A stretch of DNA of 37,234 bases from positions 1-37,234 of the IMG/VR virus record IMGVR_UViG_3300025102_000100; one strand, given 5' to 3'. The stretch is from a virus. Its lineage: Duplodnaviria; Caudoviricetes. Positions 22,664 through 30,464 of the stretch are shown piece by piece (position 1 is the stretch's first letter; each line of letters opens with the position of its first letter). Under the pieces are notes generated by a model. The model was not told where the DNA came from, searched no databases, and saw nothing but the letters and a program-made list of their open reading frames with translations. A program made the position numbers and the translations under genes.

Positions 22664-22693
22664 ATTGTAACGATGTATAAAAAATGCTGTCAA
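22664..22693 (-). promoter_or_regulatory. Sigma70-type promoter for the 22556 gene
   Basis: TTGACA-18 nt-TACAAT on the minus strand. Confidence 0.65.
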
Positions 22694-22744: not shown

Positions 22745-23071
22745 TTAACTTTCTTCATCGTCAATCATAATTCGCATTATTACCTCTGGTATATCCGGCA
22801 CAATCGCATTGCCTATTGCTTTCAATTTCTTGGCTCTGTCTGGTATGTCTGCTCCAACTCTGTCAATTCCAAGATCGAGCTCAGCCAGTGGCGTGGATAA
22901 CCCATCAGATAAGTGGCTACCCATTCTGGATTCAACTGGACTTTTGGATTCTTCTGCCGTCCACCGTCTTCGTTGATCACTTTCGTTGTCAAGCTTTCCT
23001 GTGATCCTTTCTTCCCCCTTGTCCTGTCTTGATACCCTAGTCGTGCTTCGTGGCTCACTGGTGTTGGCCAT
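22745..23071 (-). CDS. C5-cytosine methyltransferase C-terminal polypeptide (motif X)
   Basis: DRVGADIPDRAKKLKAIGNAIVP is motif X. Own RBS GAGGAG 7 nt before ATG. Same frame as the N-terminal part but separated by several stops. Confidence 0.75.
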   Translation of the reverse strand: MANTSEPRSTTRVSRQDKGEERITGKLDNESDQRRRWTAEESKSPVESRMGSHLSDGLSTPLAELDLGIDRVGADIPDRAKKLKAIGNAIVPDIPEVIMRIMIDDEES

Positions 23072-23934
23072 AACTTTTCTCCTCTTTCTCTCAATCCGGC
23101 TGCAATCATCACTTCTTCTTCTAGCACTTTGCCACCCTTGCCATTTGGTCTGCTTCCTCCACCAGTTCTAGGTGTTGGCCATAACTGCTCCTCTTTGTGT
23201 GCTTCTCTTACTGCTCCACCTAATGTTGTTCCCCTCTTCGTTCCTATTGTCTTACCCTTACCTCTTACTTGAGGATTGTCTTGTGTGGTTGGTGTAGGCC
23301 AAAACTTAACCTTATCTGCTAAATTTAAACTGTGATCGTTCTTGCCGTCTTTCGATATACGTCTGCCTTTTTCATTCAAAACAATGTTTTCATGCTCTAC
23401 GTCTTGTGTTGTAGGTGTGGGCCACATCCATTCTTTCATACGTGGTGGACGTAGTGTCGTGCCGTTCATCATCTGTTGTGCTTCTTCTTCGGTCATCTTG
23501 CCCTCTTCGACAAGACGCCTAAAGATCAATGTCTGACCCTCACTAGCATGGCCAAACCCCTTAGTCGTTGGCGTGGGGTACACGTTTTCGCTTGGCAATG
23601 ATCCAGACTCGTTTTCTTTCGTGGGCAAGCGTGACGGCACAAGCTGGAATATTAAATGTTGCGACTTCGTATTCCTTTTCCAAGTCAGAGCTCGTACGTT
23701 CGATTCCCATGGGAAGGTTAATAAATCCCGGCACATTCTCTCCAAGGACGAATTTTGGCTGGAGATCTGATATGACTCTAAACATTTCTGGCCAGAGATC
23801 ACGGTTTTTTGAATCCTTATGTCCTTCTCGCTTTCCGGCAACGGACCAAGGTTGACAAGGAAATCCTCCTGTAATGATCCACGGTCTTCCGTGTTCTCGA
23901 ATAAATCGAGTTGTGTCCAGTTGTCGTATGTCAT
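22822..23934 (-). CDS. Overprinted methyltransferase 'beta' polypeptide: WPTP-repeat (TRD-like) array plus motif IX-like segment
   Basis: 370-aa ORF in a different frame overlapping both MTase parts; five (Y/W)PTP repeats; LNPEWVATYLMGYPRHW resembles motif IX. Confidence 0.75.
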   Translation of the reverse strand: MTYDNWTQLDLFENTEDRGSLQEDFLVNLGPLPESEKDIRIQKTVISGQKCLESYQISSQNSSLERMCRDLLTFPWESNVRALTWKRNTKSQHLIFQLVPSRLPTKENESGSLPSENVYPTPTTKGFGHASEGQTLIFRRLVEEGKMTEEEAQQMMNGTTLRPPRMKEWMWPTPTTQDVEHENIVLNEKGRRISKDGKNDHSLNLADKVKFWPTPTTQDNPQVRGKGKTIGTKRGTTLGGAVREAHKEEQLWPTPRTGGGSRPNGKGGKVLEEEVMIAAGLRERGEKLWPTPVSHEARLGYQDRTRGKKGSQESLTTKVINEDGGRQKNPKVQLNPEWVATYLMGYPRHWLSSILELTELEQTYQTEPRN

Positions 23935-24085
23935 GGATAATCGGTACTTCCGGCCAGTGTTTGTTGAGAATAGTGTGGCAGTACGGATCGAACTCGCAAA
24001 AAGCTACTGTCTTGATCTTGCCAGTACGTCTTGCAGCCAACGCAAAGCCACCAATACCTGAGAATAGATCTAAATGTGTGTATAT
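23561..24085 (-). CDS. C5-cytosine methyltransferase N-terminal polypeptide (motifs I-VIII), apparent ATA start
   Basis: HLDLFSGIGG (I), CE.D (II), HDI (III), GGFPCQPWS (IV, catalytic Cys), ENV (VI), HERKRVWI (VIII). The ORF-track start 24040 cuts off motif I. Confidence 0.9.
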   Translation of the reverse strand: MYTHLDLFSGIGGFALAARRTGKIKTVAFCEFDPYCHTILNKHWPEVPIIHDIRQLDTTRFIREHGRPWIITGGFPCQPWSVAGKREGHKDSKNRDLWPEMFRVISDLQPKFVLGENVPGFINLPMGIERTSSDLEKEYEVATFNIPACAVTLAHERKRVWIIAKRKRVPHAND

Positions 24086-24086
24086 C

Positions 24087-24236
24087 TTATACTCCGAATA
24101 GCTTTCTTAATAACCTCTTCCACCAAGACAATGCCAGTTCCTCATGCCAAAATGACTGCTTGAACAGTTCATCGTTTTGTTTTTGCTCAACTGACGGCTC
24201 TTGCTTTGGCTCTTTTCTTTCTGTCTTTTGCGTCAT
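24087..24236 (-). CDS. Small protein (49 aa) with C-terminal amphipathic helix
   Basis: MTQKTERKEPKQEPSVEQKQNDELFKQSFWHEELALSWWKRLLRKLFGV; AAGGA RBS; not in the ORF track. Confidence 0.6.
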   Translation of the reverse strand: MTQKTERKEPKQEPSVEQKQNDELFKQSFWHEELALSWWKRLLRKLFGV

Positions 24237-24651
24237 CTATTTCCTTTTGTATTTGATTCTCAACTTGTAGAATGGTGTGTGCTTGTCCTTTGATAGTAAG
24301 TTTTAGATTAGGTATAGCTTGCAAAAATGCACTAACTTCATTGACAGACCTACATACGGCATACTCGCAACCTAACTCAAGAAGCAGTGTGCCCACGTTA
24401 CGTTGTTGCTCTGTAGGATAATTACCTGGTTGTTTGAGCTCAATAAACAATGGCGTAACACCCTTTATCAATATCATTAAGTCAGGAAACCCAGCCATCA
24501 TACCCAAAAGCTTTTGTTTGTGGAAATATTGGACTTTGTGGTTGCCCTCGTTTGGACTGTGATGCAGTATCTTACGATCAGGTAAAACAAGATCTAAGTA
24601 CCTTACAACGCTTTTCTGTAGATCTGTCTCACTACTGTATACACGTATCAC
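24187..24651 (-). CDS. VRR-NUC family nuclease (Holliday-junction resolvase-like)
   Basis: E..LQ, HSPNEG, G..AGFPDL, FIELK, QR and VCRS motifs. Confidence 0.85.
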   Translation of the reverse strand: MIRVYSSETDLQKSVVRYLDLVLPDRKILHHSPNEGNHKVQYFHKQKLLGMMAGFPDLMILIKGVTPLFIELKQPGNYPTEQQRNVGTLLLELGCEYAVCRSVNEVSAFLQAIPNLKLTIKGQAHTILQVENQIQKEIDDAKDRKKRAKARAVS

Positions 24652-24878
24652 TGATTATCTCTTTGGATGTAGAAGTCATTTGGTTGTACTTCGCCACGGG
24701 TGAGCTCCAAGATACGGCTCATGTATTTTGTTTCACCACGGTTACTAGGTATTAAGTAATTTTTATGATTTTGTGGCAAACACCACCGTCGAGCCATCTG
24801 TGCGTGTTTCGTTCCCAAGCGTTGTGCCAGTTGTCCGTAAGACCAACCTTTATTCAATCTATAGGCGTTTAACGTCAA
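24648..24878 (-). CDS. Cro-like HTH regulator
   Basis: MTLNAYR...WSYGQLAQRLG...ARRW and TRGEVQPNDFY; divergent from the repressor; GGAG RBS before TTG. Confidence 0.8.
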   Translation of the reverse strand: MTLNAYRLNKGWSYGQLAQRLGTKHAQMARRWCLPQNHKNYLIPSNRGETKYMSRILELTRGEVQPNDFYIQRDNQ

Positions 24879-24918: not shown

Positions 24919-24956
24919 ATTATATCTTGACGTTAGATGACAAGTCAATCTAGTGT
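24919..24956. promoter_or_regulatory. Overlapping divergent promoters of the genetic switch
   Basis: Minus strand TTGACT-18-TATAAT (24948-24919); plus strand TTGACG-18-TAGTGT (24927-24956); a 17-bp operator 24927-24943 overlaps both. Confidence 0.65.
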
Positions 24957-24985: not shown

Positions 24986-25678
24986 ATGAATAGTATAATG
25001 CAGACAAATCTACCGTTGTTATTGAAAGACGATCATATGTCTGGTCATTTGTTAAAAAAGGCTATTGAGCGCAGAGGTGTTAAAAAGAAGCACATTGCAA
25101 TCAAAAAAGGAATTACACCGTCAACATTAGCACGGCAGTTGAGTGGTAAGCATAGCTTGTCACTAAGAGATATACGCGAATATTCTGAAATATTAGATTG
25201 TCCTTATGAAGAACTACTGCTTGATATAGCACCAGTTCGAATTTTGGGACACGTTAGCGAGATTTCGCGTGTTAATTTAGACGATGCTTCTAGTAAACCA
25301 AGGCATATAATGCCACCTTACTCTATTCCCAATAATTATGTTGGGTTGGAATCGTATAGCCAGAATCAAACTAATCTGTATCTATTTGATCAACGGCATA
25401 TGCATATGCAGACCATTGATCCTAGTTGCTACAAATCTATGTGCGTGATGAAGGTCACACAAAAGGGGTATGAAACTGGTCAAGCACAATTAACCAACGT
25501 GTCTTGGACACATCATGTTTTTCTTGGTTATGTCTATCCTGAACCCAATAATCTATACACAATGTCCAGTATAGCTTATCCAGGTTCACAATATATAAAC
25601 TTGGAGCTTGCATGGGCAGCACCAATACTTGCTTATCATTACAACCCTGCAACGCTAGGGTGGCAGTATGTTAAGTGA
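24986..25678 (+). CDS. CI-like repressor (XRE HTH N-terminus)
   Basis: LKKAIERRGV....IA...GITPSTLARQLSG HTH; divergent from cro. No clear S24 autoproteolysis catalytic residues seen. Confidence 0.75.
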   Translation: MNSIMQTNLPLLLKDDHMSGHLLKKAIERRGVKKKHIAIKKGITPSTLARQLSGKHSLSLRDIREYSEILDCPYEELLLDIAPVRILGHVSEISRVNLDDASSKPRHIMPPYSIPNNYVGLESYSQNQTNLYLFDQRHMHMQTIDPSCYKSMCVMKVTQKGYETGQAQLTNVSWTHHVFLGYVYPEPNNLYTMSSIAYPGSQYINLELAWAAPILAYHYNPATLGWQYVK

Positions 25679-26342: not shown

Positions 26343-27296
26343 ATGGAAGAGACAAGTCCAGAATGGGCAACAAGACACCATTATTACCACCACAGTAACT
26401 ACAAAGGTAAATCGAAATCTAAGATATTTTTTGATAAATGCCATGTAAGACCAGCCATAAAACTAGCCGAGAGCATTGTTGATAATCCAGACGCTACGGA
26501 CGGACAGAAACAAGATGCTTGGGATATCATTAGACGATTAGATCAAAAGTATAACGGAAGCGATAATGCAGCAATGCTCATGGGACGGCTCACACAAATG
26601 GCGTGTGATGCTATTCTTATAGAGCATGAGGACGTCAATAAAGCTATAGATGACGTATTATTTATGGCGCACAACTACGAACCTCGAACATGGGACAACG
26701 GTAAAGATGCAGCAAAACGTGATTATCTGCTTACAGAACTGCCGTTTGTTATAAAAAATGCCGTTGTTGGGTTGCAAGAAGCTATGGCATTGGACAACAA
26801 GATATTAGGTGAAATAACTTTATACAATAAGTTACCTGGCAATCGCCTACCCTACATGACTAAGCCGGACTATGGACGTAGAGGAGATCTAAAGACCAAA
26901 TGGTCCAAGGCAAATAATAAAACCAAGTCAGGTTTTGCGACGCACTCACTACCTACAAATCTAGGTAAAAGTATATGGGATATGCGAAACGTAAGCCAAG
27001 TGGCTGGTTTCTACGCCCTCAACAGTCAACTGCCGCCGTTCCTTTTATACGCAAACAAGACCGATTATAGGCTATTCAATGAAGATAATTGCTATGAGTT
27101 GGAACAGGATCATCTGAATTATATGGTGTCGCAGAGTGTTGATATGAATAAAGCAATAGAGCTCAAGCTACAGAAATCAGAAAACAAAAGGCAACTGTTG
27201 GAAGACGAGTTTCCAGATACATCCGATTGGCTAGAGCCACCAACAATAATAGAAGAAGCGACACAACTATGGAGTCTGTATTATGCAAGCAAATAA
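26343..27296 (+). CDS. PD-(D/E)XK exonuclease-like protein
   Basis: E...KPDY...DLKTK and QVAGFY motifs; adjacent to the ERF recombinase. Confidence 0.7.
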   Translation: MEETSPEWATRHHYYHHSNYKGKSKSKIFFDKCHVRPAIKLAESIVDNPDATDGQKQDAWDIIRRLDQKYNGSDNAAMLMGRLTQMACDAILIEHEDVNKAIDDVLFMAHNYEPRTWDNGKDAAKRDYLLTELPFVIKNAVVGLQEAMALDNKILGEITLYNKLPGNRLPYMTKPDYGRRGDLKTKWSKANNKTKSGFATHSLPTNLGKSIWDMRNVSQVAGFYALNSQLPPFLLYANKTDYRLFNEDNCYELEQDHLNYMVSQSVDMNKAIELKLQKSENKRQLLEDEFPDTSDWLEPPTIIEEATQLWSLYYASK

Positions 27297-28023
27297 AGAA
27301 ATTTTTCAGGCAATAGAGAAAGCCAGGGCAAACGGATTTCAACAAATCAAAAAGTCTGGCAGTAATCCTATGTTTAAAAGCAAGTATTCTACACTGCTTG
27401 ATGTATTTGAAGCGTGTAAAGTTCCATTGGAAAAAGAGGGCGTACACATAGCGTTTCACACGGAGCTGCATACTATAGAGGGTAAGCTTGAAAATGTACT
27501 TGTGTGCCGACTTATACATCTTGAGTCTGGTCAAATACTTGAGAGCAAAGTTACGTGCTTTGATGATACTAAAAAGGGAAGTCAAGCCATAGGCTCTGGA
27601 GTGACCTATATGCGTAGGTATCTTTTACAAGCCATGCTTAATCTTGAGTGTGATCCAGAAACAGACGATGACGGCAACGCTACTGCTATAGAAAAGAAAG
27701 ACCCACCAAAAGAAAGTAAGCCACCAGACAAAGATACTGTCGCGGCATTGGAAGAGATGGCCGATAAGATCAACGGCAAAGTGGAAGAAGAAGCGAAAGA
27801 TGGAAAGTATAGCACGGATCAGTTATTTGCAGAGCATGAAGCACGAATAATTGGTGAGCTCGATCTTTGCAAAGAGGTAGCACACTTGGGACGTTGGCGA
27901 GAAAATAACAAAGTATGGTTGGACAAGTTCCAAGCAACACGCGAGAAGCAGCATAAAAATATTCTTGCGTATTTCAATATCAAAAAAACACAACTGCAAC
28001 CAAAGGAGAAAGACGATGGGTAG
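27283..28023 (+). CDS. erf: ERF-family single-strand annealing protein
   Basis: NPMFKSKYSTL, LIHLESGQ, QAIGSGVTYMRRY.L and DDDGN. Confidence 0.92.
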   Translation: MQANKEIFQAIEKARANGFQQIKKSGSNPMFKSKYSTLLDVFEACKVPLEKEGVHIAFHTELHTIEGKLENVLVCRLIHLESGQILESKVTCFDDTKKGSQAIGSGVTYMRRYLLQAMLNLECDPETDDDGNATAIEKKDPPKESKPPDKDTVAALEEMADKINGKVEEEAKDGKYSTDQLFAEHEARIIGELDLCKEVAHLGRWRENNKVWLDKFQATREKQHKNILAYFNIKKTQLQPKEKDDG

Positions 28024-29113: not shown

Positions 29114-29298
29114 GATGTACCCTCCTCTTCGTCTGAGCGAACCATGTAGTCGAACAGTTCTTCTAGTTTCTTTTTACCATTAACTTGACCCATCATCTTG
29201 TCATTTCGGTAGATCATATATAATGACCCACCTTCGATGACATGAGCAGAATAGGTATGACCATTCTTAGCTTTGTATTCTTTTTCTTTGACAATCAT
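29098..29298 (-). CDS. Hypothetical protein (66 aa)
   Basis: ATGA-coupled to the integrase stop; GGAG RBS. Confidence 0.65.
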   Translation of the reverse strand: MIVKEKEYKAKNGHTYSAHVIEGGSLYMIYRNDKMMGQVNGKKKLEELFDYMVRSDEEEGTSWKII

Positions 29299-30464
29299 AC
29301 CATGCTCCCAAACTTGCCAAGGCTTTGATTGAGCTTGTCCTTGGCTTCTTGTTTCTCTTCGTCATTCTCAATCCAATGGCTATATATATCAATCGTGGTC
29401 TTGATAGAAGCATGACCCATATAAGTCTTGATCCTATTGAAGTCACCACCATATACCTTGAGCAAGACAGACGCATAGTAATGTCTAAGGTCATGCCATC
29501 GTATACGCTCCACATCTGCCCTCTCACAAGCTTCTTGCAGATATTCCCTTAGTCTAGTGCCTGACAAGATGCCACCAGTAGAGGACGGAAATACACGCAC
29601 AGACGATGTGCCTTGTTGCAACTTGTATTCCTTGAGCATACTTGCAAGCCATTTTACTATCGGTACATTTCGCATACCCTTCTCTGTTTTAGTAGAGTGA
29701 CGTATCTCAAACTTGCCTTTCTCAGTTCTCTTGCCTTGACTATCAACAGAGTAATTTCTTTTGTAATGGACAACTTTATTGACATTGATTTCTTCGTTGT
29801 CGAAATCTACGTCAGACCATTCCAATGCTCTCAGTTCGCCTGATCGTAATCCTGAGTATGCAGAAAATAGATACATAAGCTTTCGTTGGCAGATAGCATT
29901 AGAACCAAGAGGTTGTATATTCTTGGCAATCTTATGTATTACGTCCTCAGATATTTGCGTTAGCTTTTTCTTGTCACGATCTCCATAGTCCAAGCCACTT
30001 GCCAACTGTTTGAATACGTTCATGCTTACACAACCCTTAAGAACGGCAAAGTCCAACAACTGTCTGAAGTGTGCCATGACCTCTCTCTGTGTCTTTGGTG
30101 ATCTGTTACCTTTGATGGTCAAAAGTAATTCATCAAGATCACCGACAACAAACTCACGAACTTTCATGTCGGCAAGCATGAGCCCATCTATGTCAACTTG
30201 TTCGAACTCAAACATAGACCTCTCTTTGTTATGAGAATTCTTACGTGACTTCAATCGCTCTCTGTACTGATCAATGAGATATTCAAATGTCCATTCAGTT
30301 TTGTTTTCTCTTGAAACACGAACACCCTCAATCTGTTTCATTTGGGTTTTCATATAGTTTGACGCTTCGTCTTTGGTTGCAAACATTTCGATTGATCCAC
30401 CGAACTTTCTTAGATCAACACCCCAAGGTTTCTTGCCGTGACTTTTCCAATATTTAACTTTCAT
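29295..30464 (-). CDS. int: Tyrosine integrase
   Basis: SGLRSGEL (R), TKT (K), HDLRH (H..R), MGH, and TTIDIY (catalytic Y). Confidence 0.95.
   Translation of the reverse strand: MKVKYWKSHGKKPWGVDLRKFGGSIEMFATKDEASNYMKTQMKQIEGVRVSRENKTEWTFEYLIDQYRERLKSRKNSHNKERSMFEFEQVDIDGLMLADMKVREFVVGDLDELLLTIKGNRSPKTQREVMAHFRQLLDFAVLKGCVSMNVFKQLASGLDYGDRDKKKLTQISEDVIHKIAKNIQPLGSNAICQRKLMYLFSAYSGLRSGELRALEWSDVDFDNEEINVNKVVHYKRNYSVDSQGKRTEKGKFEIRHSTKTEKGMRNVPIVKWLASMLKEYKLQQGTSSVRVFPSSTGGILSGTRLREYLQEACERADVERIRWHDLRHYYASVLLKVYGGDFNRIKTYMGHASIKTTIDIYSHWIENDEEKQEAKDKLNQSLGKFGSMV

Follow-up and report, generated by a model that had tools for sequence, protein, structure and literature searches.

The window, i.e. 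the whole stretch of 37,234 nucleotides analysed here (IMG/VR virus record IMGVR_UViG_3300025102_000100, Caudoviricetes), holds a C5-cytosine methyltransferase locus between positions 22745 and 24085 in which the methyltransferase motifs are divided among three overlapping open reading frames (ORFs): a catalytic chain with motifs I-VIII (alpha-N), a recognition chain in the +1 frame with motif IX (beta), and a short ORF in the alpha frame with motif X (alpha-C). The three-ORF split is real, conserved and selected, it possesses start signals of its own, and it has arisen repeatedly. On the strength of these comparisons it is probable, with odds of roughly three in four, that all three chains are separately made and assemble into one active methyltransferase. 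A wider proposal, appreciably more doubtful than this and offered tentatively, is that of a naturally heterotrimeric, multispecific C5-methyltransferase in which each W-P-T-P module of beta would have its own target, the repeats would serve both as recombination points and as start sites, and the three-chain state would have at least three origins, once with a fully separate motif X gene.

Characterised C5-methyltransferases, in the portions of the literature consulted, comprise no more than two chains. A three-chain form occurring in nature, if true, would mean that motif X, part of the S-adenosylmethionine-binding domain, can come from a free peptide of 60-110 residues, and it would offer ready split points for targeted methylation tools. 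The route from an overprinted gene to separate genes is traceable, since the unbroken form, the internal start and the stand-alone gene are all found in sequence data, and target recognition in a large two-frame phage family would have been relocated from alpha to beta. Because such loci read as pseudogenes or as half-annotated, an experiment in which nothing but the annotated ORF was cloned would turn out falsely negative.

Three overlapping reading frames

Alpha-N (23561..24085, on the minus strand like every element of the locus) is 174 aa long, starts with an ATA codon behind GGAG, matches PF00145 in Pfam at an expectation value (E) of 2e-34 and also passes the cut-off of TIGR00675 in NCBIfam. 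Its motifs are found at 24064 (FSGIGG), 23866 (GFPCQ), 23740 (ENV) and 23623 (HERKRVW), and the chain ends 20 residues past the start of motif VIII. Beta (22822..23934, 370 aa, +1 frame) matches phrog_1008 in PHROGs (E 2e-24) and consists of a conserved N-terminal part lying under motifs IV-VIII, five W/Y-P-T-P modules (22936..23580; starts at 23580, 23424, 23301, 23181 and 23070; 52, 41, 40, 37 and 47 aa) and motif IX (LNPEWVATYLMGYPRHW, 22885..22935). Alpha-C (22745..23071, 108 aa) returns to the alpha frame and carries motif X (KLKAIGNAIVP, 22796..22828) and the last helix, its N-terminal half being leftover linker. The motif X identity of alpha-C rests on comparison with relatives; in the single-chain relative L150 motifs IX and X align in order, weakly, with residues 270-318 of M.HhaI.

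Alpha-N overlaps beta by 374 nt and beta overlaps alpha-C by 250 nt. The alpha-frame linker that separates the two alpha ORFs (23168..23563) is broken by 11 stop codons, namely five TAA, three TAG and three TGA, and with stops of three kinds no reassigned genetic code opens the alpha frame. Of the PF00145-type motifs, I, IV, VI and VIII are intact and IX and X are present on separate ORFs, and the locus is not a monomeric enzyme of a single polypeptide. An earlier, sequence-only reading of this DNA had described the same three-ORF layout with its frames and overlaps, several alpha-frame stops after motif VIII and a GAGGAG ribosome binding site for the motif X ORF. All of this was reproduced from the sequence, the stops numbering 11 and the GAGGAG lying at 23079..23084, 7 nt before the ATG; what that description overlooked were the ATA start, the modular repeats and the very large two-frame phage family that is the parent of the locus.

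Conservation, start signals and origins of the split

The records of the window clade that reach past motif VIII (n=12, alpha-N 92-98% identical) stop early in every case, and the nine long enough to include motif X, which represent 7 distinct contigs, have all three ORFs and 12-19 stops; L081, a record without alpha-N, has 16 stops and the same alpha-C start as the window. Contigs of two other runs, X2 and X3, that lie over the stop-bearing stretch have the same letters at the stops and are free of insertions and deletions. Codons 1-50 of alpha-N have a ratio of non-synonymous to synonymous divergence (pN/pS) of 0.03-0.08 at pS 0.33-0.72 (7 pairs, within the all-split clade), and for the 24 single-coded motif X codons that follow the end of beta the ratio is 0-0.29 at pS 0.19-0.72, with three synonymous and no non-synonymous changes between the window and L084, and seven and one, respectively, between the window and L083. 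Alpha pS drops from 0.33-0.72 to 0.10-0.20 under beta, matching the prediction for dual coding.

A pseudogene, an assembly error or read-through of the stops under another genetic code would fit with the occurrence of single-stop copies in the family (L103, L474 and L490) and with the unbroken alpha that is the rule elsewhere. The sequence-only reading had itself held that the copy would be a pseudogene if its motif X ORF were untranslated and its homologues all unbroken, and it is just the close homologues that are split, in 12 of 12. The whole clade is split at pS up to 0.7 with motifs intact, and a pseudogene is unlikely because this clade keeps the motifs under purifying selection; together with the 11 stops and their identical letters in other contigs, this makes any such explanation very improbable. 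Read-through under another code is rejected on account of the three kinds of stop.

Alpha-C has start signals of its own. The GAGGAG is a Shine-Dalgarno (SD) sequence set within beta codons (duplex -9.0 kcal/mol), and the ATG at 23071 arises at the Leu-Trp junction of module 5, the Trp codon of W-P-T-P with its preceding base reading NTG in the alpha frame. Past the last stop, the first repeat codon of the ATG, GTG or TTG kind is an ATG in 7/7 clade loci examined, with SD energies of -9.0, -8.2, -6.2, -5.9, -5.9, -3.9 and -3.9 kcal/mol; among the repeat NTG codons of 371 distinct unbroken loci, 77/696 are ATG and 8/696 are ATG with an SD of -6 or lower. The start is found at differing modules among relatives, 86-156 codons before GN. 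The window also retains an older start (23168..23182; ATG at 23182, SD -8.2), closed four codons on by the TAG at 23170 in module 4, that is identical to the open start of L084, the window's new start lying at the end of module 4; in a run X4 contig without module 4 the stop is gone and the older start is left. One module contains three alpha-frame stops in L084, where it lies upstream of the start, and none in L085, L086 and L300, where it lies inside alpha-C. The earlier claim that the motif X ORF has its own start is thus strengthened by an SD-ATG that is conserved in the clade and moves with module swaps.

The start of alpha-N is of a different kind. Its first codon, at 24085, is ATA, and the stretch from the preceding stop (24109) to motif I contains no ATG, GTG or TTG in frame; ATA and GGAG are kept in 12/12 clade records, the window included (L001-L005, L296-L300, L303). 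The ATA start possibly keeps the enzyme scarce.

A -1 ribosomal frameshift could instead join beta to motif X and give only two chains, with an M.AquI-like partition into motifs I-VIII and recognition-IX-X. Such a partition does exist as plain ORFs, beta carrying both IX and X, in seven loci (L055, L060, L061, L065, L378, L408 and L503), TTTTTTG occurs near motif IX in L085, L086 and L300, and in L700, L703 and L706 a motif X gene lies in the beta frame with one stop between, the SD being formed by the last Glu codons of beta. Over the open alpha-C region of the window, L082 and L083 the beta frame lacks any heptamer of the type X XXY YYZ, and slippery heptamers elsewhere in the clade are scattered with none common to loci; the frameshifted fusion that the sequence-only reading had envisaged as an alternative is left with no conserved slippery site. 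A frameshift would also leave unexplained the SD-ATG and the stop-free stretch of the alpha frame upstream of motif IX, which at 75-136 codons is longer than a late frameshift requires (P 5e-3 to 1e-6 per locus, a rough and post hoc figure). It is furthermore inapplicable where an unrelated 58-aa gene lies between beta and the motif X gene (L616), and to a clade with motif X genes in three frames; joining of beta to motif X by frameshifting is accordingly rated as quite unlikely.

This second clade is unrelated to that of the window, and its stand-alone motif X gene means that a frameshift fusion is not needed. Alpha-N ends 4-10 residues past its hidden Markov model (HMM) match, and motif X is a separate gene of ~75 aa after the beta stop; the clade accounts for 4/80 loci in one sample and 7/80 in another (4 shared, 7 distinct). 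The gene has an ATG 48 codons before GN in 7/7, with an SD of -5.6 to -11.5; it follows the end of beta by 2-172 nt and uses frames 0, +1 and +2. Thirty clusters of proteins 73-92 aa long match it with identities of 60-100%, and the Met is invariant among 19 aligned proteins; in cultured phages only nine weak partial matches were found, none over 80% of the query. The clade may derive from a beta-IX-X fusion, to judge from the loci with one stop between. A third case is L087, which is split by 12 stops and has an ATG with an SD of -6.4, its relatives L217, L218, L220 and L221 (86-92%) being unbroken. In alpha-N trees (269 rows) the window clade, L087 and the stand-alone clade stand apart, each beside unbroken loci, and a constraint uniting the three split groups is rejected by the approximately unbiased (AU) test (p-AU 1e-4, 45 rows). 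The tree suggests at least three origins of a split motif X.

Assembly, activity and known split enzymes

The structure model of an unbroken alpha (L006) superposes on residues 7-324 of M.HhaI with a Z of 24.5 and a root-mean-square deviation of 3.2 over 214 residues; its predicted local distance difference test score (pLDDT) is below 50 in the linker and about 95 in the motif X helix. The alpha linker of the two-frame family is unconserved in sequence. Because the linker is unconserved and predicted to be disordered and the motif X helix is confident, a cut linker should leave a complementing peptide. PMC3404938 places motif IX and the variable region of M.HhaI in the small domain and the other motifs in the large one, and describes natural as well as artificial two-piece C5-methyltransferases as active.

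The most likely course of events would begin from an ancestor with the common M.EcoHK31I-like layout, in which motif X was tethered to the catalytic chain via a dispensable linker riding over beta. The purine-rich run before a W-P-T-P repeat, given an A, would yield a ready SD-ATG in the alpha frame, and once an internal start existed upstream stops could accumulate at no cost. The enzyme would then be formed by the catalytic chain (I-VIII), the recognition chain (modules and IX) and the short motif X chain, with motif X completing the S-adenosylmethionine-binding large domain in trans, as its place in M.HhaI suggests. Recombination at the repeats would add and remove modules, and the phage DNA would presumably be methylated early in lytic growth against host restriction.

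The three chains might be made and yet not be a working 5-methylcytosine (m5C) methyltransferase, serving e.g. as a DNA-binding decoy or acting on another base or substrate. No member of the phage family has a shown activity in the portions of the literature consulted, and avoidance of many C-containing palindromes suggests that methylation cover is incomplete. In PMC8256090, marine phage C5-methyltransferases of clades III-VI without motifs VIII-X are reported to be inactive, some of them in E. coli; some may belong to the two-frame family, with motifs in another frame or gene. Against a lack of activity stand the intact FxGxG, PC, ENV and RxR of alpha-N, the invariance of G10, G12, P76, C77, E116, N117, V118, R157 and R159 across 71 sequences, and the purifying selection on motif X, and such a product is considered unlikely. 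It might also be that alpha-N and beta suffice and that alpha-C is an untranslated leftover, since its N-terminal linker, on the 11-14 kDa scale, is unconserved and differs in each relative. Nearly all changes in the motif X codons that follow the end of beta are synonymous, and the start signals are preserved and shift when modules are exchanged, so that a dispensable alpha-C is a highly improbable interpretation.

A number of findings weigh against assembly of three chains into an active enzyme and against the repeated origin of the split. Neither Pfam nor PHROGs nor NCBIfam gives a family match for alpha-C alone, only 15 of 70 motif X segments match Pfam, all at E 0.011 or weaker, and the L150 alignment to M.HhaI amounts to 6 bits. 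The structure model of beta is poor (mean pLDDT 57, modules unresolved). A canonical alpha start is present in 291/300 unbroken loci and absent for the window alpha-N, the SD of beta is weak (-4.2 kcal/mol), and low expression is possible because of these two features. Of the two frames singled out for dN/dS analysis by the sequence-only reading, the alpha frame is under purifying selection both in alpha-N and in motif X, the latter as judged from 24 codons only; the beta frame under alpha-N has a pN/pS of 0.6-6.4, which alone is no clear purifying selection. With respect to the starts, the seven clade loci amount to about five independent sequences and the SD of L085 and L086 is weak (-3.9); with respect to the origins, L087 is a single record and the trees are built from alpha-N only, in a recombining locus. 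The many-stop three-gene layout is also rare, being found in 1/79 classifiable viral and 0/77 genome loci in motif IX scans.

Among known systems the nearest in layout is M.EcoHK31I (YGGCCR), in which, according to PMC2836561 and PMC3404938, motif IX belongs to a separate chain whose gene overlaps that of the catalytic chain in a different frame; the target recognition domain (TRD) is assigned to the alpha chain (PMC2836561). The window shares with it a motif IX chain in another frame over alpha, a likeness drawn from layout descriptions only. However, motif X stays on alpha and beta is wholly nested in M.EcoHK31I, whereas in the window the alpha frame is interrupted past motif VIII and a third ORF carries motif X; and the window linker, full of stops, has no room for a TRD, the module array being on beta. 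The locus is therefore M.EcoHK31I-like but departs from that enzyme in two of its defining features. M.AquI (CYCGRG) is a two-chain C5-methyltransferase with IX and X on one small chain (PMC3404938, consulted in part); it shares with the window a chain of motifs I-VIII that ends in the variable region, but in the window IX and X are on separate ORFs in different frames, beta stopping at 22822. Separately made fragments of M.HhaI, M.BspRI, M.BsuRI and M.SssI complement in one cell, according to the same part of PMC3404938; these fragments are artificial and in two pieces, and none described there frees motif X alone. Neither a three-chain C5-methyltransferase nor a phage two-frame enzyme was found in the literature searched, a scope outside which lay REBASE, the 1990s primary papers and most subscription papers. 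The available part of the Tweety phage paper lists three methylases and mentions no split, and m5C methyltransferases of relaxed specificity from Paracoccus and Sinorhizobium prophages are ~700-aa proteins for which the excerpts consulted make no tie to the two-frame family.

The two-frame family, its modules and the phage

When 615 fetched loci and the window are classified by HMMs of alpha-N and of motifs IX and X, an unbroken alpha with beta in the +1 frame proves to be the rule, in 64/80, 70/79, 68/80 and 78/120 loci of four samples. The least biased samples, scans for motif IX patterns, give the unbroken layout in 72/121 viral and 66/121 genome loci, with 42 viral and 44 genome loci lacking alpha-N in the DNA fetched (mostly short). 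By estimate, one exact motif IX pattern occurs in about 3800 stretches of IMG/VR and about 550 of GTDB, and alpha is unbroken in 8/8 annotated phage regions examined. The family (phrog_363 / phrog_1008) is annotated as two genes in Paenibacillus phage Bloom and as one gene in phage C72C1 and in mycobacteriophages. The window has the same alpha-N, beta, modules and frames as this family, but differs in the division of alpha into two ORFs and in the separate start of motif X; since the overprinted two-frame layout is very common, the news is the third piece and not the overprint. The three-gene count given above leaves out the single-stop copies and the odd-frame loci L165, L166, L428, L502, L403, L497, L566 and L612.

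Other partitions are also seen. Motifs I-X are on one chain in L150, L520, L531, L650, L680 and L682, and the +1 frame of L150 still holds a 177-aa beta with modules present and motif IX absent. In L166, L502 and L428 the frames are swapped mid-locus, with alpha-N joined to motif IX and motif X in another frame; these may be real variants or single frameshift mutants.

Trautner and co-workers reportedly described, in 1996, multispecific Bacillus phage C5-methyltransferases that are single chains with TRDs of proven specificity. These enzymes, which have no cognate nuclease, share with the window tandem exchangeable modules between motifs VIII and IX. By this analogy and by their position, the W-P-T-P modules most likely act as target-recognition units. 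Searches of beta and motif X profiles against PDB sequences gave nothing significant, and an ESM Atlas search matched unnamed viral clusters only.

In a set of 1068 modules there are 3-54 similar ones for each module of the window, most of them from unbroken loci, and every one of the five is also present in unbroken loci. Natural populations show module loss and reordering as DNA variants: joints in contigs of runs X2-X4 (window 23060-23296) pass over precisely the 111 nt of module 4 or the 120 nt of module 3, or jump back by 231 nt, although two of these joints contain unknown letters and could derive from relatives; runs X4 and X5 cover the locus in part. One beta module in L087 (1888-3195) and in L088 has an insert of ~100 aa that is helical and by eye like a helix-turn-helix; there are nine alpha-frame stops in the insert in L087, and the alpha frame is open across it in L088.

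The sequence-only reading had also proposed that breaking the alpha frame frees the specificity region to expand, which holds in part. Split overlap loci (n=8) have 4-9 modules with a median of 6.5, those of the window clade 5-9, against a median of 2 and a maximum of 6 in unbroken loci (n=408); T before AA, AG or GA never occurs in unbroken linkers and is found 122 times in the eight split linkers. The split lifts a mutational load of ~8.6 C-to-T-sensitive sites per 100 codons and admits stop-bearing modules. Dual coding, however, costs beta no amino acids, because an open alpha forbids only T in third position before AA, AG or GA, where a synonymous C is always allowed; unbroken loci reach 1084 nt, and 22/408 of them have five or more modules, while the second three-gene clade has only 2-4 and the window's own modules recur in unbroken loci. 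With two or three split events only, splitting may be either the cause or the effect of the longer arrays.

The window, a complete contig, belongs to a temperate marine phage with an integrase (29295-30464), a repressor (24986-25678), a cro-like gene (24648-24878) and Erf (27283-28023), and further encodes a terminase, a portal-type connector, a capsid protein and a tail fibre. The methyltransferase locus sits in the cro-side run, its neighbours being a VRR-NUC protein, a 48-aa ORF and DUF6362, and no restriction enzyme is named among the 23 window ORFs scanned in Pfam. GGCC, GCGC, GAATC/GATTC and many 6-bp palindromes are depleted in the window (1-37234); as a guide to the target site this word avoidance gave nothing specific in the window, palindromes being avoided broadly. 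GANTC is the CcrM site (PMC3925955, consulted in part), and its avoidance may hint at an alphaproteobacterial host. Phage orphan methyltransferases have a general anti-restriction role, according to PMC12707154; by analogy, an anti-restriction role as suggested by the sequence-only reading is likely for this locus too, in view of its early-lytic placement, the palindrome avoidance and the fact that no nuclease is named.

The 48-aa ORF (24087..24233, minus strand), which has no NCBIfam match, stops 1 nt before the ATA of alpha-N, allowing possible translational coupling; it is kept in 11/12 clade records, and L300 has a different upstream gene with the same ATA/GGAG signal. The run of cro-like gene, VRR-NUC gene, small ORF and methyltransferase is headed by a promoter-like site (TTGACT-18-TATAAT, 24919..24948, minus strand), a consensus match only, at 11/12; four promoter-like sites were found in all versus 4.7 expected. 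A second such site (TTGACA-18-TACAAT, 22664..22693, minus strand) lies just after the methyltransferase and before the DUF6362 gene.

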